Source: Escherichia phage vB_Eco_BCPEco_001. From it: a stretch of DNA of 64,000 nt. Below are positions 30,855-52,820 of the stretch, one piece after another (the stretch's first letter is position 1; every line of letters starts with the position of its first letter). The stretch lies in the sequence record PV295200.1, one strand, 5' to 3'. Both the position numbers and the translations under genes were made by a program. The notes below the pieces were generated by a model that was not told the origin of the DNA, searched no databases, and saw nothing but the letters and a program-made list of their open reading frames with translations.

Positions 30855-31823
30855 ATGAAAACTGTAACTATCAATAAGGGTATCTACTTTGGTAAAGAAA
30901 TCTCTGGAACTTTTGAGCTCTTAGGCGAATGGTTCCCAGATAATGCTCCGGTGGATGCACAAGGAGATGGTAAAGTTTTTGTTGAAATTGACGGTAAGCG
31001 TCGCGGTGTTTGGGTTTACAAATCAGACATTTCATATGATGGTGTAAAAGTTGAAGAAGTTAAAGAATCATATGAAGATATGAAAACCCGCATTAATAAA
31101 AGATTTAATGTTATGGGAATGATGACGAATGGTATTATTAACGGAAACATTCGTTCATTAATTATCTCTGGTGCGGCGGGTATTGGTAAAACGTATTCTT
31201 TAGATAAAGCTTTAAATAAAGCAAATGATATTGGATACATTGAGTATAAAAGCATTAATGGTAAAATCTCAGGTATCGGTCTTTATGAGCAGCTCTGGAA
31301 TAATCGTGAAGAGAATTCTGTCCTTTTGATTGATGATGTGGATGTTTTCTCTGATATGGACATTCTTAATCTTCTGAAAGCTGCTCTGGACACTGGAGAG
31401 ACCCGTAAAGTCTGCTGGAGCACTGCATCTTCTTACTTAGAAGAAAAAGGCATTGACCGTGAGTTTGAATTTAAAGGAACAATTGTTTTTATCACAAACG
31501 TTGATATTGACCGCGAATTAGACCGTGGTACTAAACTTGCTCCACATTTACAAGCATTAGTGTCCCGCTCAGTTTATTTAGATTTGGGTGTTCACACTAA
31601 TGAAGAAATTATGGTCAGGGTTGAAGATGTTATTCTTTCAACCGACATGATGCAAAAGCGCGGTCTTTCTGATGAAGAAACTTATAAAGCATTATCATGG
31701 ATGAAAGTCAATGTTAACCGTTTACGTAATGTTTCACTGCGTACTGCACTTTATCTTGCTGACTTTATTATGACCGACAAAAACGGTTGGGAAGAAATCG
31801 CTGAAACGGTATTGTTAAAATGA
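30855..31823 (+). CDS. P-loop ATPase (AAA-like)
   Basis: 322 aa from MKTVTINKG; Walker A GAAGIGKT, Walker B VLLIDDVD; track ORF 30687 is an upstream extension through the promoter. Confidence 0.6.
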   Translation: MKTVTINKGIYFGKEISGTFELLGEWFPDNAPVDAQGDGKVFVEIDGKRRGVWVYKSDISYDGVKVEEVKESYEDMKTRINKRFNVMGMMTNGIINGNIRSLIISGAAGIGKTYSLDKALNKANDIGYIEYKSINGKISGIGLYEQLWNNREENSVLLIDDVDVFSDMDILNLLKAALDTGETRKVCWSTASSYLEEKGIDREFEFKGTIVFITNVDIDRELDRGTKLAPHLQALVSRSVYLDLGVHTNEEIMVRVEDVILSTDMMQKRGLSDEETYKALSWMKVNVNRLRNVSLRTALYLADFIMTDKNGWEEIAETVLLK

Positions 31824-32539
31824 AAAAATATTTTACTATCTATAAAACTGAAATATTAAATTTAAAGACTGGCGTTAAGAAATATTATTATGGTCGACAT
31901 ATAACTAATAATATCAATGATTCGTATGTTGGTAGTGGAAATTATATAGAACGTGTAAAAGTGTCAAATGACCACATATTATCAAAAACGGTTTTAGAAG
32001 TTTTTGATAATTATGATAAAATGGTACAAGCTGAAATATTATATATCATGGCAGGTAAATTGAAATATGGAAAAAACTGTGTTAACCTGTCATACGGGGG
32101 TGAAGGAGGAAAGGTTGCAGATGAAACTAGAATAAAATGCAAAAAGCATTCTATAAATTTATGGAAAAATCCTAATCATATACAGCATATGAAGAAAAAG
32201 ATGAAAGAGGTCACATCCACGCCGGAAGCTAAATTAAACACTTCAATAAAAACTTCGCAACGATATAAGGACCCGGTTTTTGTTAGAAAAGTTAGTAATA
32301 TTATTAAAAAGAAACTAAGCAATCCTGCAGTAAAAGAAAAGCATATTAATGGAATTAAAGCTGCAAAGCGTTCTCATTTAACTATATGGCAGTATGAAGA
32401 TGAATTATTCGAGCTTTGGAAAGAAACTAAATGTGGATGGAGAAAATTTACAAAGGAAGCTATAAAACACGGATATCCAAATGAACCGTATCGTAGTATG
32501 GTATCAACTTTTCAGAAAAGACATTTAGAAGAATCCTAA
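31820..32539 (+). CDS. GIY-YIG homing endonuclease (Seg-like)
   Basis: 239 aa; KKYYYGRHITNNINDSYVGSG GIY-YIG-type N-terminus; basic C-terminal DNA-binding-like region; ATGA-coupled to the upstream ATPase. Confidence 0.6.
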   Translation: MKKYFTIYKTEILNLKTGVKKYYYGRHITNNINDSYVGSGNYIERVKVSNDHILSKTVLEVFDNYDKMVQAEILYIMAGKLKYGKNCVNLSYGGEGGKVADETRIKCKKHSINLWKNPNHIQHMKKKMKEVTSTPEAKLNTSIKTSQRYKDPVFVRKVSNIIKKKLSNPAVKEKHINGIKAAKRSHLTIWQYEDELFELWKETKCGWRKFTKEAIKHGYPNEPYRSMVSTFQKRHLEES

Positions 32540-40462: not shown

Positions 40463-42276
40463 CAATTGAAAAAGAAATTGAAGGATTGATTCATAAAACT
40501 AATAAAGACCTTTTGAACGAGAATGCTAATAAAGATTCTCGTGTTTTTCCAACTCAACGGGACCTTATGGCTGGTATTGTGTCTAAGCACATTGCCAAAA
40601 ATATGGTCCCGTCTTTTATTATGAAAGCGCATGAAAGCGGAATTATTCATTTCCATGATATTGATTATTCCCCTGCTCTTCCATTTACTAATTGCTGTTT
40701 AGTAGATTTAAAAGGAATGCTTGAGAACGGATTTAAGCTCGGTAATGCACAGATTGAAACTCCTAAATCAATCGGTGTTGCTACTGCAATTATGGCACAA
40801 ATTACTGCGCAAGTTGCTTCCCATCAATATGGCGGAACGACTTTTGCGAATGTAGATAAAGTACTTTCTCCTTATGTTAAACGCACCTATGCAAAACATA
40901 TCGAGGACGCAGAAAAATGGCAAATCGCTGATGCACTGAATTATGCTCAATCTAAAACAGAAAAAGATGTATACGATGCATTCCAAGCTTATGAATATGA
41001 AGTAAATACTCTCTTTAGTTCAAACGGACAAACGCCTTTTGTAACAATTACATTTGGTACGGGAACTGACTGGACTGAACGAATGATTCAGAAAGCAATT
41101 CTGAAAAATCGTATTAAAGGTCTTGGTCGTGATGGGATAACTCCTATTTTCCCTAAGCTTGTTATGTTTGTTGAAGAAGGTGTTAATCTTTATAAAGACG
41201 ATCCGAACTATGATATTAAGCAGCTTGCTCTAGAGTGTGCAAGCAAAAGAATGTATCCTGATATTATTTCAGCTAAGAACAATAAAGCTATCACTGGTTC
41301 ATCTATTCCTGTTTCTCCAATGGGTTGCCGTAGTTTCTTGAGCGTATGGAAAGATTCGACCGGTAATGAAATTCTTGATGGACGTAATAATCTTGGTGTT
41401 GTAACACTGAATCTTCCTCGCATCGCGTTAGATTCTTATATTGGAACACAGTTCAATGAACAGAAATTTGTTGAATTATTCAATGAACGAATGGATTTAT
41501 GTTTTGAAGCTTTGATGTGTAGAATTAGTTCCTTAAAAGGAGTTAAAGCGACTGTTGCTCCTATTCTTTACCAAGAAGGTGCATTCGGGGTTCGTCTTAA
41601 ACCTGATGACGATATAATTGAGTTATTTAAAAATGGTAGAAGTTCAGTGTCCCTAGGATACATTGGTATTCACGAATTGAATATTCTTGTCGGTCGTGAT
41701 ATTGGACGAGAAATTTTAACTAAAATGAATGCTCATCTTAAACAGTGGACTGAAAGAACCGGATTTGCTTTTAGTTTATATTCGACTCCTGCTGAAAACC
41801 TTTGTTATCGCTTCTGTAAACTCGATACAGAAAAATATGGAAGTGTAAAAGATGTTACCGATAAAGGTTGGTACACTAACAGTTTCCATGTTTCAGTAGA
41901 AGAAAATATTACTCCGTTTGAAAAGATTTCCCGCGAAGCACCATATCATTTCATTGCGACAGGTGGTCACATTTCTTATGTTGAACTTCCTGATATGAAA
42001 AATAACTTAAAAGGTCTTGAGGCCGTGTGGGATTATGCTGCACAACATTTAGATTATTTTGGTGTTAATATGCCAGTAGATAAATGTTTTACATGCGGAA
42101 GTACCCATGAAATGACTCCTACTGAAAACGGATTTGTTTGTTCTATTTGTGGAGAAACTGATCCTAAAAAGATGAATACCATAAGAAGAACATGCGGCTA
42201 TCTTGGAACTCCTAGCGTTGTTCCATGGAATTTAGGTAAAATGAAAGAAATGGTAAAACGAGTAAAACATGCATAG
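40459..42276 (+). CDS. nrdD: anaerobic ribonucleoside-triphosphate reductase NrdD (intronless)
   Basis: 605 aa continuous ORF; C-terminal glycyl-radical region RRTCGYLG and zinc ribbon CFTCGS...CSICG. Confidence 0.9.
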   Translation: MTIEKEIEGLIHKTNKDLLNENANKDSRVFPTQRDLMAGIVSKHIAKNMVPSFIMKAHESGIIHFHDIDYSPALPFTNCCLVDLKGMLENGFKLGNAQIETPKSIGVATAIMAQITAQVASHQYGGTTFANVDKVLSPYVKRTYAKHIEDAEKWQIADALNYAQSKTEKDVYDAFQAYEYEVNTLFSSNGQTPFVTITFGTGTDWTERMIQKAILKNRIKGLGRDGITPIFPKLVMFVEEGVNLYKDDPNYDIKQLALECASKRMYPDIISAKNNKAITGSSIPVSPMGCRSFLSVWKDSTGNEILDGRNNLGVVTLNLPRIALDSYIGTQFNEQKFVELFNERMDLCFEALMCRISSLKGVKATVAPILYQEGAFGVRLKPDDDIIELFKNGRSSVSLGYIGIHELNILVGRDIGREILTKMNAHLKQWTERTGFAFSLYSTPAENLCYRFCKLDTEKYGSVKDVTDKGWYTNSFHVSVEENITPFEKISREAPYHFIATGGHISYVELPDMKNNLKGLEAVWDYAAQHLDYFGVNMPVDKCFTCGSTHEMTPTENGFVCSICGETDPKKMNTIRRTCGYLGTPSVVPWNLGKMKEMVKRVKHA

Positions 42277-42288
42277 GGTTAAACACCA

Positions 42289-42921
42289 ATGAATTATGAC
42301 AGAATCTATTCAAATCTAGTTAATTCTGCTGAACACCCATCTAAGCCCCGTCAAACTAAAGCCGGGTATGAACTTCATCATATAATTCCAAGAAGCATGG
42401 GTGGTCCAGATGATTTAGACAACTTAGTATTTTTAACTTATAAGGCCCACTATACTGCTCATCATTTATTGGCTAAAATATATGGTGGAAAGATGTATGA
42501 TGCATATTGGATAATGAGTAATAGTAAGCATAGAAAAGTTACTTCTTCACAATACGCGTATGCAAAAGCTAAGAAATTTGAAAATCAGCGTGGCGCAAAA
42601 AGAAGCGATAAAACTAAGAAGCTAATGAGCATAGCTAGGTCTAAAGTAACTCTTCCTGATGATTTTGGAAAAAGGATATCTGATGGGCTAACAGGAAGAA
42701 CTTTGTCTACTAGTCATAAAGAGCATATCAAAAATAGTTCTAGAAATCGCTTTAACACCAAAACGGTTATTGGCTATTCACCAGACGGAAATACAATAGA
42801 ACTAACTGGAGCAACTGAAATAAGAAATGCAGGATTTTTTCATTCTGCTGTTTATAAATGTTGCAAAGGAATTCAATCTATTCATAAGGGATATACTTGG
42901 AAATATAAAGATGAATTATGA
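42289..42921 (+). CDS. HNH homing endonuclease, free-standing between nrdD and nrdG
   Basis: 210 aa; HNH core GYELHHIIPRSMGGPDDLDNLVFLTYKAHYTAHH; first 7 residues MNYDRIY identical to the NrdG N-terminus; 3' end overlaps the nrdG start by 11 nt. Confidence 0.65.
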   Translation: MNYDRIYSNLVNSAEHPSKPRQTKAGYELHHIIPRSMGGPDDLDNLVFLTYKAHYTAHHLLAKIYGGKMYDAYWIMSNSKHRKVTSSQYAYAKAKKFENQRGAKRSDKTKKLMSIARSKVTLPDDFGKRISDGLTGRTLSTSHKEHIKNSSRNRFNTKTVIGYSPDGNTIELTGATEIRNAGFFHSAVYKCCKGIQSIHKGYTWKYKDEL

Positions 42922-43381
42922 TAGAATATACCCGTGCTGCTTTGTTAATGGTCCTGGATGCAGGGTCGTTCTCTTCGTCACTGGATGTTTGCATAAATGC
43001 GAAGGTTGTTATAATCGTAGTACTTGGAATGCTCGTAACGGACAGTTATTCACTATGAATACCGTTAAAGAACTTGCGTCCCATTTAAGCAAATCGTATA
43101 TCCAAGGCCTTACCTTAACCGGTGGTGACCCACTTTATCCACAGAACCGAGAAGAGATTTCAAATTTAGTTTCTTGGGTTAAAGCAAGATTTCCGGAGAA
43201 AGATATCTGGTTGTGGACAGGATATAAGTTTGAAGATATTAAACAGCTAGAAATGCTTAAATATGTTGATGTTATTATTGATGGGAAGTATGAGAAAAAT
43301 CTTCCGACTAAAAAGCTGTGGCGAGGATCAGATAATCAGCGACTTTGGTCAAATACCGATGGGGTGTGGAAACATGATTAA
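42911..43381 (+). CDS. nrdG: anaerobic ribonucleotide reductase activating protein NrdG (radical SAM)
   Basis: 156 aa from MNYDRIYPCCFVNGPGCRVVLFVTGCLHKCEGCYN (radical-SAM Cys cluster); the track ORF 42827 starts earlier inside the HNH gene. Confidence 0.85.
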   Translation: MNYDRIYPCCFVNGPGCRVVLFVTGCLHKCEGCYNRSTWNARNGQLFTMNTVKELASHLSKSYIQGLTLTGGDPLYPQNREEISNLVSWVKARFPEKDIWLWTGYKFEDIKQLEMLKYVDVIIDGKYEKNLPTKKLWRGSDNQRLWSNTDGVWKHD

Positions 43382-48804: not shown

Positions 48805-49824
48805 ATGAAAATACTAAACTTGGGTGATTGGCATTTAGGCGTTAAAGCTGATGATGAGTGGATTCGCGGTATTCAAATTGATGGAATTAAGCAAGCGATA
48901 GAATATTCTAAGAAAAATGGAATTACGGTATGGATTCAATACGGTGATATTTTTGATGTACGAAAAGCGATCACGCATAAAACTATGGAGTTTGCCCGTG
49001 AAATAGTTCAAATGCTTGATGGTGCTGGAATCACATTACATACTATTGTAGGAAATCACGATCTCCACTACAAAAATGTAATGCATCCAAATGCTTCTAC
49101 TGAGCTTTTGGCTAAATATCCTAATGTTAAAGTATATGATAAGCCTACTACAGTAGATTTTGACGGGTGTTTGATTGATTTAATTCCTTGGATGTGTGAA
49201 GAAAATACTGGTGAAATTCTTGAGCATATCAAAACTTCATCTGCTTCTTTTTGTGTTGGTCACTGGGAACTGAATGGATTTTATTTTTATAAAGGAATGA
49301 AATCTCACGGTCTTGAACCTGATTTCCTTAAGACTTATAAAGAAGTGTGGTCTGGTCACTTCCATACTATCTCTGAGGCTGCTAACGTTAGATATATTGG
49401 GACACCATGGACACTAACTGCAGGTGACGAGAATGACCCTCGTGGGTTCTGGATGTTTGATACAGAAACAGAACGAATGGAATTTATTCCAAACAATACT
49501 ACCTGGCATCGTAGAATTCATTATCCATTTAAAGGAAAAATTGACTATAAAGATTTTACAAATCTATCAGTACGTGTTATAGTAACTGAAGTAGACAAAA
49601 ATCTGACGAAGTTCGAATCTGAACTAGAAAAAGTTGTGCATTCATTACGAGTTGTGTCAAAGATTGATAACTCTGTCGAGTCAGATGACAGTGAAGAAGT
49701 TGAAGTTCAATCGCTTCAGACATTAATGGAAGAGTATATTAATGCAATTCCAGACATCACCGATTCTGACCGTGAAGCACTTATTCAATATGCAAATCAG
49801 CTATATGTAGAGGCAACACAATGA
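48805..49824 (+). CDS. 47: recombination endonuclease subunit gp47 (Mre11-like)
   Basis: 339 aa as in T4 gp47; phosphoesterase motifs LGDWHLG and GNHD. Confidence 0.9.
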   Translation: MKILNLGDWHLGVKADDEWIRGIQIDGIKQAIEYSKKNGITVWIQYGDIFDVRKAITHKTMEFAREIVQMLDGAGITLHTIVGNHDLHYKNVMHPNASTELLAKYPNVKVYDKPTTVDFDGCLIDLIPWMCEENTGEILEHIKTSSASFCVGHWELNGFYFYKGMKSHGLEPDFLKTYKEVWSGHFHTISEAANVRYIGTPWTLTAGDENDPRGFWMFDTETERMEFIPNNTTWHRRIHYPFKGKIDYKDFTNLSVRVIVTEVDKNLTKFESELEKVVHSLRVVSKIDNSVESDDSEEVEVQSLQTLMEEYINAIPDITDSDREALIQYANQLYVEATQ

Positions 49825-50084
49825 CTTTTGATGAATTTAAAAATGTTATGATGAGTCAGCATTTTGAATGCGAAGTAAAAGATGATATTGGGCATAAAGA
49901 AATTATTGAATATTGGTTTGAACCACTAGAGGTTGAAGATAATTGTATTAAAAAGGTTACGGTCTGCACTGACTGGGCTGTATCTTTTAACTTCAACATT
50001 TTAGATAATGACACACCTAAATCATTACAAGATATGGCTGTATCTTGTATTAAGGATGCATACTGTGAAGTTTTCGACATTTGA
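49821..50084 (+). CDS. hypothetical protein
   Basis: 87 aa, ATGA-coupled to gene 47. Confidence 0.5.
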   Translation: MTFDEFKNVMMSQHFECEVKDDIGHKEIIEYWFEPLEVEDNCIKKVTVCTDWAVSFNFNILDNDTPKSLQDMAVSCIKDAYCEVFDI

Positions 50085-50271
50085 CATTAATGATGAATTC
50101 ATAGCAAACATTGATTATACCGAAGAAGATTCTAGATATGTTGGAATAATTTATATTACATCAAAAACAGCACAAGGTGTTGTTTGCATGGCTGAATTTG
50201 ATGAATACTTTTTAGATTATGATGATATGATAGAATGGTCTAAAAGATACATTAAAAGGAATCTTTTGTGA
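50056..50271 (+). CDS. hypothetical protein whose 5' end is repeated at the start of the downstream HNH gene
   Basis: 71 aa from an ATG (MHTVKFSTFDINDEF...); the track start 50008 is further upstream; 19-nt sequence ttgacattaatgatgaatt is repeated at 50284. Confidence 0.4.
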   Translation: MHTVKFSTFDINDEFIANIDYTEEDSRYVGIIYITSKTAQGVVCMAEFDEYFLDYDDMIEWSKRYIKRNLL

Positions 50272-51122
50272 AGAATTTTAAACTTGACATTAATGATGAA
50301 TTTTTAATAAAGGAATTAGTTGAAAAATTAGCGTTGAGTGAAGAAGACGCCAAGTCTTACATTAATTTTATTTCTATGAATTCAACTGTTAAAACTCCAG
50401 GTAAAACGGAAGCACACCACGTGCTTCCTAAATCAATATTTCCTGAATATTTAAAATCTACATGGAATTTAGTTAATTTAAGTCATTTTAATCATTTTAA
50501 AGCACACTTCTTATTAGCAAAAGGTAAAAATGGAAAAATGCTAAATGCTTTAAATAGAATGATGTCAGGGAAAACATATAAAAATTTATCTTTAGCCGAA
50601 GTTGATTTAATAGCTGCTGAATATAGTTTTATAAAACAAGATGTAAGTGACACAATATCAAAAAGGCTTCAACAGTATTATTCAAATCCGCAAAATAGAA
50701 ATGCTGCTAGAGAAAGGGCATTAAAATATTTTTCAGTAGCAAAAAATAGGAAAGATAACAAAGAAAGATTAAATAATTTTAAAACAAAACAAAAAATTTC
50801 AATGGCTTCAAGGGAATGGTTTAATAACGAAGAAAACAAAATTAAACACCAAAAGGCTGTTCGTGCTGCTTTATCAAAACCTGAATATAAAATAGCTATA
50901 TCAAATTCAGTAGCTGCTAGTTGGAAAAATCCGGAGATTAGAAAAGCTCATATAGCATCTAGACGAAAAGGCTATCATTGGGATAATAAAGATAAATTGT
51001 ATGAATTGTGGATATCATATAATCGTCCTAAACATGTGATGTTTAGGAAAATGTTAGTTAAGAATGGATATCCAATAGAGGCTTCATTACAGGCTTTAGT
51101 TAAAGAATTTTCTTCATTGTGA
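50268..51122 (+). CDS. HNH homing endonuclease, free-standing between genes 47 and 46
   Basis: 284 aa; HNH-like core KTEAHHVLPKS...NLVNLSHFNHFKAHF; basic C-terminal half; apparent GTG start; N-terminus KNFKLDINDEF repeats the upstream gene N-terminus. Confidence 0.6.
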   Translation: MKNFKLDINDEFLIKELVEKLALSEEDAKSYINFISMNSTVKTPGKTEAHHVLPKSIFPEYLKSTWNLVNLSHFNHFKAHFLLAKGKNGKMLNALNRMMSGKTYKNLSLAEVDLIAAEYSFIKQDVSDTISKRLQQYYSNPQNRNAARERALKYFSVAKNRKDNKERLNNFKTKQKISMASREWFNNEENKIKHQKAVRAALSKPEYKIAISNSVAASWKNPEIRKAHIASRRKGYHWDNKDKLYELWISYNRPKHVMFRKMLVKNGYPIEASLQALVKEFSSL

Positions 51123-51137
51123 ACAATTGGATACAAA

Positions 51138-52820
51138 ATGAAATCATTTAAACTTAATAGAGTAAAATATAAAAATATAATGTCAGTTGGTCAAAATGGA
51201 GTTGACATTCAATTAGATAAGGTTCAAAAAACTCTTATTACTGGACGAAATGGCGGTGGTAAGTCTACTATGCTAGAAGCCATCACATTTGGGCTTTTTG
51301 GCAAGCCATTTCGTGATGTAAAGAAAGGCCAATTAATAAACAGCACAAATAAGAAAGAACTTTTAGTTGAACTGTGGATGGAATATGATGAGAAAAAGTA
51401 CTATATCAAAAGAGGACAAAAACCAAACGTTTTCGAAATCACCGTTAACGGTACACGTCTTAATGAATCTGCCAGCAGTAAAGATTTCCAAGCAGAATTT
51501 GAACAGCTTATCGGAATGTCATATTCCAGTTTCAAGCAGATTGTTGTCCTTGGTACAGCAGGGTATACCCCTTTCATGGGTTTGTCGACCCCTGCGCGAA
51601 GAAAGCTTGTGGAAGACCTGCTTGAGGTAGGAACATTAGCTGAAATGGATAAGCTTAATAAAGCACTAATACGTGAATTAAATTCGCAGAACCAAGTGCT
51701 TGATGTTAAAAAAGATAGTATTATCCAACAAATTAAAATATATAATGATAATGTTGAACGCCAGAAAAAATTAACTGGCGACAACCTTACTCGTCTACAA
51801 AATATGTATGATGATTTGGCAAAAGAAGCTAGAACGCTAAAATCGGAAATAGAAGAAGCTAATGAAAGATTAGTTAATATTGTTTTAGATGAAGACCCAA
51901 CTGATGCATTTAATAAAATCGGTCAAGAAGCAGTTTTAATTAAATCAAAAATTGACTCGTATAATAAAGTCATTAATATGTATCACGAAGGTGGATTATG
52001 TCCAACCTGCTTGTCACAATTAAGTTCCGGTGATAAAGTTGTTTCTAAAATTAAAGATAAAGTTTCTGAATGTACGCATTCGTTTGAACAGCTTTCAACA
52101 CACCGTGATAATTTAAAAGTTCTTGTTGATGAATACCGAGATAATATTAAAACCCAACAGTCGTTGGCAAATGATATTCGCAATAAAAAGCAATCTCTAA
52201 TCACGACAGTAGATAAAGCTAAAAAAGTTAAAGCGGCTATAGAAAAAGCATCTTCTGAGTTTATTGACCATGCTGATGAAATAGCACTGCTTCAAGAAGA
52301 ACTTGATAAAATTGTTAAGACAAAAACTAATTTAGTAATGGAAAAATACCACCGAGGAATTTTGACTGATATGCTCAAAGATTCTGGTATTAAAGGTGCT
52401 ATTATTAAAAAGTACATTCCATTATTTAATAAGCAGATTAACCATTATCTTAAAATAATGGAAGCGGATTATGTGTTTACATTAGATGAAGAATTTAATG
52501 AGACAATTAAATCCCGCGGTCGTGAAGATTTTAGTTATGCTTCATTTAGTGAAGGTGAAAAAGCACGAATTGATATTGCTCTTTTATTTACTTGGCGTGA
52601 TATTGCTTCTATTGTATCTGGTGTTAGTATTAGTACATTAATACTCGATGAAGTGTTTGATGGGTCATTTGATGCCGAAGGTATTAAAGGTGTAGCTAAT
52701 ATTATAAATTCAATGAAAAACACTAATGTTTTTATAATTTCACATAAAGACCATGACCCGCAAGAATATGGTCAGCATCTTCAAATGAAGAAAGTTGGTC
52801 GATTTACTGTAATGGTTTAA
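51138..52820 (+). CDS. 46: recombination endonuclease subunit gp46 (Rad50/SbcC-like ATPase)
   Basis: 560 aa as in T4 gp46; Walker A GRNGGGKST; central coiled coil with CPTC zinc hook; C-terminal D-loop LILDEVFD. Confidence 0.9.
   Translation: MKSFKLNRVKYKNIMSVGQNGVDIQLDKVQKTLITGRNGGGKSTMLEAITFGLFGKPFRDVKKGQLINSTNKKELLVELWMEYDEKKYYIKRGQKPNVFEITVNGTRLNESASSKDFQAEFEQLIGMSYSSFKQIVVLGTAGYTPFMGLSTPARRKLVEDLLEVGTLAEMDKLNKALIRELNSQNQVLDVKKDSIIQQIKIYNDNVERQKKLTGDNLTRLQNMYDDLAKEARTLKSEIEEANERLVNIVLDEDPTDAFNKIGQEAVLIKSKIDSYNKVINMYHEGGLCPTCLSQLSSGDKVVSKIKDKVSECTHSFEQLSTHRDNLKVLVDEYRDNIKTQQSLANDIRNKKQSLITTVDKAKKVKAAIEKASSEFIDHADEIALLQEELDKIVKTKTNLVMEKYHRGILTDMLKDSGIKGAIIKKYIPLFNKQINHYLKIMEADYVFTLDEEFNETIKSRGREDFSYASFSEGEKARIDIALLFTWRDIASIVSGVSISTLILDEVFDGSFDAEGIKGVANIINSMKNTNVFIISHKDHDPQEYGQHLQMKKVGRFTVMV

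Follow-up and report, generated by a model that had tools for sequence, protein, structure and literature searches.

An HNH endonuclease cassette in the first codons of gene 46 of a T-even phage, and the probable origin of the 19-bp repeat at its left edge

How does the gene of a putative homing endonuclease come to begin with codons of two different neighbours? The question is raised by a locus of Escherichia phage vB_Eco_BCPEco_001, of which one 64-kilobase (kb) stretch (64,000 nucleotides (nt) of sequence record PV295200.1) was analysed; we call this stretch the window and give all positions by its numbering. Here an HNH open reading frame (ORF) of 284 amino acids (aa) with a GTG start (50268..51122, + strand) lies between the small gene 46.1 and the recombination gene 46. 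The initial annotation had pointed to a perfect 19-base-pair (bp) direct repeat, TTGACATTAATGATGAATT, on the + strand at 50081-50099 and 50284-50302, and had read it as a copy of the 5' end of the upstream neighbour in the HNH gene. The repeat was confirmed. It occurs exactly twice in the window, and when up to three mismatches are allowed on both strands there are still only these two matches; extended to 45 nt, the copies are 78% identical. The in-frame peptide said to be shared is also there, as (F)DINDEF in the 46.1 ORF and (L)DINDEF in the HNH ORF. The heptamer TGTGAAG, described as preceding each copy, is indeed present (50064-50070 and 50267-50273), although it stands 10 nt upstream of the repeat and not next to it.

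To place the repeat, we aligned the locus with the empty sites of T4, RB14 and IME339. The window carries an insertion of 870 bp relative to T4 (50286..51155, + strand), which falls after codon 6 of gene 46 between flanks that are 98% identical to T4. In T4, gene 46 starts at a GTG (annotated as such in M10160) that overlaps the 46.1 stop as GTGA, and it reads GTGAAGAATTTTAAACTT followed by AATAGAG; in the window 870 extra bases follow AAACTT, and AATAGAG resumes at 51156. The exact insertion boundary can slide within a flanking 9-bp direct repeat, TTTAAACTT (50277-50285 and 51147-51155). Consequently, the former initiation region of gene 46 (50256..50285, + strand), which consists of AAGGA, 7 nt, GTG and codons 1-6 (GTGAAGAATTTTAAACTT, MKNFKL), is now that of the HNH ORF: the HNH start and its upstream context, the AAGGA and the 7-nt spacer, are identical to the T4 gene 46 start. 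At its other end the cassette closes with a 15-nt spacer containing a weak GGA ribosome-binding site (RBS) and a replacement gene 46 start, ATGAAATCATTTAAACTT (51123..51155, + strand). Gene 46 restarts there at an ATG (51138) and encodes MKSFKL in place of MKNFKL; the two six-codon stretches are identical at 13/18 nt and share TTTAAACTT exactly. Over the first 21 nt the HNH gene and gene 46 are identical at 14 positions, a value reached at none of 553 in-frame control positions.

By alignment, then, the HNH gene is not intergenic. It sits six codons inside gene 46, and seems intergenic because the cassette restores a gene 46 start. The duplication of the first six gene 46 codons around the insert is the true duplicated start at this locus, overlooked by the initial annotation. 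It follows that the 19-mer does not represent a shared translation-initiation region, as had been proposed: copy 2 lies downstream of the start, in codons 6-12, and the RBS and GTG used by the HNH gene derive from gene 46. These structural facts of the insertion and of the duplicated start, read directly from the sequences, are secure.

The 3' end of the cassette resembles other phage lineages. It includes ATGAAATCATTTAAA, which is the gene 46 start of the Mosigvirus JS09, and a segment running from GGATACAAAATGAAA to TTTAAACTTAATAGAG that is homologous to the 3' end of the HNH gene of the Gelderlandvirus SEA1. We had considered that this end derives from a Mosigvirus 46.1/46 junction and dropped the idea, since the comparison with SEA1 identifies it as the native 3' end of this HNH family overlapping the gene 46 start. 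As a separate observation, the HNH ORF and gene 46 share a reading frame, with only the TGA stop and five sense codons (TIGYK) between them (51120-51140), and stop-codon readthrough at the end of HNH would yield an HNH-gp46 fusion. One metagenomic variant of the HNH protein (290 aa) has a C-terminus that is shifted at this HNH/gene 46 junction.

Where does this leave the 19-mer? Copy 1 (50081..50099, + strand) comprises the last 4 nt of gene 46.2 and 15 nt of 46.1, and in the latter covers codons 6-12 (FDINDEF). Copy 2 (50284..50302, + strand) covers codons 6-12 of the HNH ORF. The comparison with T4 and other T-even phages that the initial annotation had called for identifies the 46.1 copy as the ancestral one, present in T4 and RB14, which lack HNH and have only this copy; copy 2 is derived. 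Furthermore, the distant 46.1 homologues in JS09 and S16 have, by eye, an (H/D)EF close to their N-termini, which the DEF of the 46.1 copy matches. A generic motif scattered over the genome, which the initial annotation had named as the finding that would speak against its view, is not what the window contains. Copy 2 begins at 50284 and the insert at 50286, so the 19-mer is the leftmost sequence of the cassette. The left junction, TGTGAAGAATTTTAAACTT followed by GAY, is common to the six phages compared (the window, PP01, T6, T2, SHFML-11 and SYGD1), indicating a single origin of the insertion.

We consider it probable that the 19-mer is a scar of recombination on the left side of an HNH cassette, promoter-less and of the Mob type, and thus a relic of an earlier arrangement. 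In an earlier host of T4-type background the HNH gene would have lain directly after 46.2, replacing the body of 46.1 and fused to the 46.1 start and first 12 codons; the predicted ancestor is an HNH gene of the T6-type lineage directly after 46.2 with the start MKFSTFDINDEF. This cassette would have been transferred into a genome that still had 46.1. The right crossover would have been ordinary homologous recombination within gene 46, while on the left the 46.1-type start of the donor (GTGAAGTTTTCGACATTT) would have recombined with the gene 46 start of the recipient (GTGAAGAATTTTAAACTT). In T4 itself these two start regions are identical at 12/18 nt from the GTG, with AAGGA upstream of each. 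The outcome would be a genome with 46.1 intact, HNH six codons into gene 46, and 17-19 nt of 46.1 left behind as a fossil. A single crossover event would explain the retained 46.1, the HNH start MKNFKL, the fossil DINDEF and the duplicated gene 46 start together. The position of the 19-mer at the left edge of the insert is what is expected of a relic, while it would be a coincidence for a conversion tract laid down later.

Relatives of the HNH gene occupy just the kind of place that such an ancestor would have had. The closest non-identical homologues, with 44% aa identity, are found in phages F2 and SEA1, at the corresponding location but instead of 46.1. F2 has 46.2-HNH-46, and its HNH gene opens with the ATG and the 22 nt that also open 46.1 of JS09. 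SEA1 has 47-HNH-46; there the HNH ATG and the gp47 stop overlap, at precisely the point where S16 begins its 46.1-like gene. At its 3' end HNH runs into the start of gene 46 in each of the two phages, and GGATATTAAATGAAAACCTTTAAACTTAATAGAG of SEA1 is clearly homologous to GGATACAAAATGAAATCATTTAAACTTAATAGAG in the 3' end of the window cassette. The usual place of this HNH family is therefore the 46.1 slot directly upstream of gene 46, at the start codon of the displaced gene. F2 also has a peculiarity of its own: it is classed as a Tequatrovirus, yet comparison with JS09 shows 46.2 and the starts of both HNH and gene 46 to be Mosigvirus-like, so that the segment around its endonuclease gene has apparently moved between genera.

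Several observations weigh against the relic model. Exact-pattern scans of viral, metagenome and genome collections for a donor with the 46.1 start fused to a T6-type HNH gave 0 matches. When an artificial fused query was used in megablast, all 60 listed carriers, of about 70, matched it as 46.1 plus HNH, in two pieces spanning 711 bp. This absence of a fused donor in the searched data is the main weakness of the model. In addition, 14 of the 22 nt shared by F2 HNH and JS09 46.1 belong to the overlapping coding end of 46.2, leaving only 8 nt that are specifically 46.1-derived, and the TDYET of F2 resembles the IDAET of SEA1, so that part of the F2 N-terminus could be native to HNH. The SEA1 gene, finally, has no 46.1 codons in common.

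The missing donor would find an easy explanation if the insertion at gene 46 came first and codons 7-12 were copied later, by local gene conversion, from the 46.1 start 203 bp upstream, seeded by the TGTGAAG regions. Very short homologies suffice for recombination in T-even phages, the two start regions resemble each other, and a D-x-(x)-E-like motif in the relatives (TDYETQ in F2, IDAET in SEA1) could have provided homeology. Nothing in such an event predicts that the left end of the tract should fall within 2 nt of the left edge of the insert, however, and the sequence beyond the right end of the 19-mer offers no homology that could resolve the tract. Moreover, since every carrier examined has the 46.1-type sequence, the conversion would have to precede the spread of the cassette, and we regard this account as unlikely. 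The same homeology between the start regions could instead have served unequal crossing-over, which would have duplicated 46.1 with a chimeric start (MKNFKL followed by DINDEF...) before HNH replaced the body of the second copy. The observed junctions are those that this order of events predicts, but it demands two rare events at one spot, and no duplicated 46.1 was seen: the 712 places matching the 46.1 protein fall in 712 records. We judge a tandem duplication improbable.

Alternatively, selection might maintain the repeat as a cis site or for its DINDEF peptide, for example as an endonuclease operator, a translational enhancer or a promoter element. Autorepression of the I-TevI type, through operators that resemble homing sites, is known in T4 and sets a precedent (PMC2988022); in addition, the 19-mer contains a TTGACA hexamer, and the copies are identical in the window, T6 and PP01. 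In other carriers they are not. The 46.1 copy of SHFML-11 has AAC and the HNH copy of T2 has GAT, leaving 18/19 positions identical in each phage, and in SYGD1 the copies agree at only 16/19, with an HNH copy that reads DINNEF, a nonsynonymous D-to-N change. As the copies drift independently, their identity appears historical and not kept by selection. One copy suffices in phages lacking HNH, and the 19-mer bears no resemblance to the candidate target patch in gene 46 that is described below. Nor did our promoter and terminator scan lend support: sites in the region were no more frequent than in shuffled sequence (14 promoter-like sites found vs 14.1 expected), neither copy was called as a promoter-like (sigma-70-like) site, and the T4 late promoter motif, TATAAATA, does not occur near the locus. 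A functional repeat is therefore, in our estimate, even less probable than a tandem duplication. Plain coincidence has next to nothing in its favour. Repeats of 12-14 nt are indeed common in this AT-rich window, but an exact 19-mer that lies in frame twice, at equal distance from two TGTGAAG starts and at the boundary of an insert, is another matter, and shuffled sequence gave 0.16 matches with three mismatches allowed.

We turn to the protein encoded by the cassette. It matches the PHROG 655 profile 'homing endonuclease' over residues 1-282 (E 7.8e-45), the same PHROG to which the MobC of the window belongs, as well as PHROG 12434 'HNH endonuclease' (E 4.4e-15), and its counterparts in T6, T2 and PP01 are homing endonucleases in RefSeq. 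A tblastn comparison with T4 MobD gave 30% identity over 83% of the query (E 2e-11), and blastp to the window MobC gave E 3e-7. By these matches the protein belongs to the Mob family of homing endonucleases. In an alignment with MobC and other Mob-like proteins, residues H50, H51, N67, H76 and H80 (HH..N..H..H, encoded at about 50415-50507) are invariant. While MobC of the window matches the Pfam HNH profile PF01844 (E 5.8e-6), a Pfam search that included this profile returned no hit for the HNH protein, nor did its sequence match any solved structure. Its AF2 model has a mean pLDDT of 58 and found no significant Foldseek match in the PDB (best E 1.3); the N-terminal domain is modelled better, with pLDDT around 80 and strands at 48-51 and 68-71 followed by a helix at 73-84. 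The N-terminus is a mosaic of gp46 residues 1-6 and gp46.1 residues 7-12, after which the HNH body begins. A protein search of a 5.8-billion-sequence collection together with a cluster listing returned five clusters only, and every full-length, N-terminus-bearing member that was examined starts with MKNFKLDINDEF. Altogether, the ORF is best described as a Mob-like free-standing homing endonuclease gene of a known kind, with predicted activity.

Two further features of this coding sequence were noticed. A perfect 8-bp stem, GGAAGCAC/GTGCTTCC, with a 5-nt loop (50408-50428) lies exactly over the codons for EAHHV, which are predicted to be catalytic; it scored as terminator-like on the minus strand only. 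Terminators in 5' coding regions have been reported for mobE and segF of T4. In addition, the protein ends in a similar way to the product of a Seg-like ORF elsewhere in the window (31820-32539, with a GIY-YIG-type motif recognised by eye). The likeness extends over about 80 C-terminal aa of the latter (29% over 82 aa, E 3.5e-4), and this region may be a DNA-binding module common to GIY-YIG and HNH homing endonucleases.

If the protein is a homing endonuclease, what would it cut? Immediately after the insert, and just before the Walker A motif of gene 46, lies a sharply bounded variant patch of 48 nt (codons 7-22; 51156..51203, + strand). Here T4 and RB14 differ at 12/48 positions (25%), compared with 0.3-1.9% elsewhere in 1331 nt, and SEA1 and S16 differ at 22/48 (46%), compared with at most 1.5% downstream. 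The window patch has two differences from T4 and 13 from RB14, and that of SEA1 agrees better with T4 (52/66) than with the genus to which SEA1 belongs (40/66). Phages of three genera that lack HNH read RYQNIMSVGG(N/S)P or KYQNIMSVGGSP, whereas three HNH-bearing lineages read (K/R)Y(K/S)NIMSVGQ... All carriers have the T4-type patch; among the records without HNH about 360 have the RB14 type and about 68 the T4 type, many of the latter being T4 strains. A variant allele of the flank is thus linked to the endonuclease gene, as is characteristic of co-conversion. In intronless homing by SegF, SegG and MobE, a conserved site in a neighbouring essential gene is attacked and the resistant version of the donor is co-converted (PMC2988022, PMC2993671). 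Since the patch has this signature, we propose gene 46 codons 7-22 as the probable target and immunity site. Like SegF, SegG and MobE, the HNH enzyme would probably cut or nick genomes lacking it within codons ~7-22, and repair would then copy the cassette along with the resistant version of the patch. The presence of the patch in T4 suggests that T4 either lost HNH, for instance by recombination between the flanking TTTAAACTT repeats, or gained the patch alone; the patch may be the trace of an endonuclease that was lost or passed through.

The distribution of the gene is of the kind seen in free-standing homing endonuclease genes of T4-like phages. HNH is present in 71/518 related phage records, and the remaining 447, T4 and RB14 included, have a clean empty site, so that near-identical genomes are polymorphic for its presence at one fixed position. 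Some copies are decaying: those of T2, RB51, RB68 and Ac3 are frameshifted (ORFs of 204-208 aa, or matches in two pieces), with the T2 gene broken into two ORFs and those of RB51, RB68 and Ac3 truncated. Classical phage T2 thus carries only a decayed copy. Such copies fit the decay phase in the invasion-decay cycle of a selfish element. A 2010 survey listed one 'other HNH' putative homing endonuclease gene each in T2 and T6 (PMC2993671), which is probably the HNH gene at gene 46. In the full-text literature we found no description of, or experimental work on, this HNH gene or the duplicated starts, although an earlier mention in the mobC/segH work (Sandegren 2005) is possible. Its placement in the first codons of gene 46, its N-terminus built from two host genes and the linked 48-nt patch that also occurs in T4 all appear to be undescribed.

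With regard to expression, the lack of a promoter excess and of a late-promoter motif fits a promoter-less cassette transcribed from promoters further upstream. That HNH overlaps 46.1 as GTGA suggests that its translation is coupled to that of 46.1 through the former initiation region of gene 46. Both translational coupling and promoter-less cassettes have been described for the free-standing endonucleases of T4 (PMC2988022).

The locus as a whole is that of a T2/T6-like Tequatrovirus. In comparisons with related phage records it is 100% identical to Salmonella phage vB_Sen_BCPSen_003, and T6, T2, RB51 and PP01 are 98.5-99% identical to the window here. The gene order on the + strand is a-gt, 47.1, 47 (48805-49824), 46.2, 46.1, the HNH ORF and gene 46. 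Gene 46.2 (49821..50084, + strand) was taken from the ORF list and matches Pfam T4_Y03C (E 1e-43); it is annotated as 46.2 in PP01, T2 and T4. It overlaps the beginning of 46.1 by 20 nt, with its TGA stop (50082-50084) inside copy 1 of the repeat. Gene 46.1 (50065..50271, + strand; 68 aa) belongs to PHROG 2327, covers positions 1-66 of the 66 in the Pfam DUF5487 profile (E 4.5e-50), and is a coding sequence of 207 nt in PP01, RB14, T2 and T4. The ORF that holds it opens at 50008 and ends at 50271. Its start is most likely the GTG at 50065, with AAGGA 9 nt upstream, rather than the alternative ATG at 50056. By the ORF list and annotations, gene 46 (51138..52820, + strand) is intact, with an ATG start and 560 aa, and encodes the SbcC/Rad50-like subunit of a recombination nuclease.

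The initial annotation had also proposed that a second HNH gene in the window, mobC, shows the same duplicated-start signature. Both genes do share start sequences with a neighbour; the error was in matching the HNH gene to 46.1 instead of gene 46. The true counterpart of mobC/nrdG is the six-codon duplication of gene 46 around the 870-bp insert, not the 19-mer. The mobC of the window (42289-42921) has 633 nt like that of T4 and is near-identical in sequence. It starts ATGAATTATGACAGAATCTA and the following nrdG (42911-43381) starts ATGAATTATGATAGAATATA, with 18/20 positions identical; in T4 the two starts are identical at 19/21 (MNYDRIY), a value reached at 0/149 in-frame control positions. 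In Shfl2, which lacks mobC, nrdG starts at the ATG that mobC uses elsewhere, overlapping the nrdD stop. A different HNH gene at the same nrdD/nrdG site, of the Ozark type, has its first 41 nt (13 codons, MNYDRFYPCDFVN) in common with the start of Shfl2 nrdG, and in Ozark a recoded nrdG start, MNYDRIYPCCFVNG, follows the HNH gene; the RefSeq record of Ozark starts nrdG too far downstream. The idea that MNYDRIY of MobC was wholly captured from nrdG is weakened by MobB, MobD and MobE, which lie at other loci and also begin MNYxx(I/V)Y. The N-terminal likeness of Mob and NrdG proteins may itself have served as the microhomology. Since sharing of a start with the downstream gene was absent for mobB, mobD, mobE, segA, segF and segG of T4 and for the Seg-like gene at 31820-32539, it is not universal. 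On the comparisons made here, the architecture in which an old start and first codons are fused to HNH and followed by a substitute start for the host gene nevertheless recurs.

Additional peculiarities were seen around mobC. In the window the 3' end of nrdD (42230-42290) encodes ...KRVKHA*, with a TAG 12 nt before the mobC ATG, whereas T4 and Shfl2 have ...IMHRVKHQ* with an ATGA overlap. The window nrdG gives weaker megablast matches than nrdD to most Tequatrovirus records; it matches Klebsiella Jiaodavirus records (KPN6 and others) at 86-87% and Wolf_ER13 at 93.7%. This pattern suggests a co-converted foreign flank around mobC.

What do these findings mean more generally? Tentatively, and with some doubt, we suggest that Mob-like HNH genes are often not intergenic at all: they would enter the 5' codons of a target gene by way of look-alike starts, take over its RBS and start, and carry a recoded 5' end and a resistant patch with them. 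If so, mosaic N-termini such as the present one (gp46 1-6 plus gp46.1 7-12) would be readable fossils of an element's previous addresses, and T4, with the patch and no HNH, would bear the mark of an endonuclease that was lost or passed through. This HNH family would, in addition, have moved between genera (Tequatrovirus, Mosigvirus-like segments, Gelderlandvirus); a 2010 review considered cross-genus movement unproven. Apart from this suggestion, the odd repeat can be read as a record of a selfish gene's history. An endonuclease gene of T2 and T6 that passes for 'free-standing, intergenic' in fact sits in the first codons of the essential gene 46, borrows its start and repairs the damage with a copy of its own. 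The 48-nt segment of gene 46, as the likely recognition site, makes the specificity of the enzyme directly testable. Annotators should note that chimeric sequence may occur both in the opening codons of such endonucleases and at the beginning of the gene that follows.

Compared with known systems, the insertion superficially resembles a transposon with its target-site duplication, in that short direct repeats flank it (TTTAAACTT exactly, 13/18 nt over the six codons). It differs in that the downstream copy matches other phage lineages (ATGAAATCA, as in JS09), and this copy must therefore have arrived with the cassette instead of being made by staggered cutting. No transposase was found in the ORF list of the window or by Pfam and PHROG, and the locus does not have a target-site duplication of the transposon type. 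The likeness to the Mob family of T4 (MobB-E, of which MobE has been characterised) extends from PHROG 655, the 30% identity to MobD and the HH..N..H..H motif to the promoter-less ORF in the orientation of its neighbours with a start overlapping the upstream stop (PMC2988022), and to a place beside an essential gene of DNA metabolism with a patchy presence among close relatives. The HNH protein differs from this family by lacking MNYxx(I/V)Y and any Pfam HNH match and by having an extension of about 30 aa, the first 12 codons of which come from two host genes, and the gene differs by lying six codons inside gene 46 and not between genes. With SegF/gene 56, SegG/gene 32 and MobE/nrdB the locus has in common a position beside a conserved essential gene and a short variant tract that is inherited along with the endonuclease gene. 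Here, however, the tract starts right at the insertion point and also occurs in T4, which has no endonuclease gene at this site, and cleavage and marker exclusion are inferred.

Two cassettes are known that interrupt a host gene outright: that of mobA/gene 60 splits the T4 topoisomerase gene 39/60, and mobE splits nrdA in phage Aeh1. As in our case, an HNH cassette lies inside a coding sequence, provides a new start for the downstream part, and leaves the host function alive. At gene 46, by contrast, the split occurs six codons in and yields no separate upstream polypeptide; the six codons form the N-terminus of the endonuclease, and the 5' end of the host gene is duplicated rather than divided. 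The same architecture as at gene 46 is seen in mobC/nrdG and in the Ozark type, which share 19/21 nt (mobC) or 41 nt (Ozark) with nrdG and have a recoded nrdG start after the cassette. Neither has a fossil of a second neighbour like the 19-mer, and the likeness of mobC is in part the native Mob N-terminus. None of these differences changes the kind of element involved, which is a known one: the gene belongs with the Mob-like, free-standing homing endonuclease genes of the HNH type.

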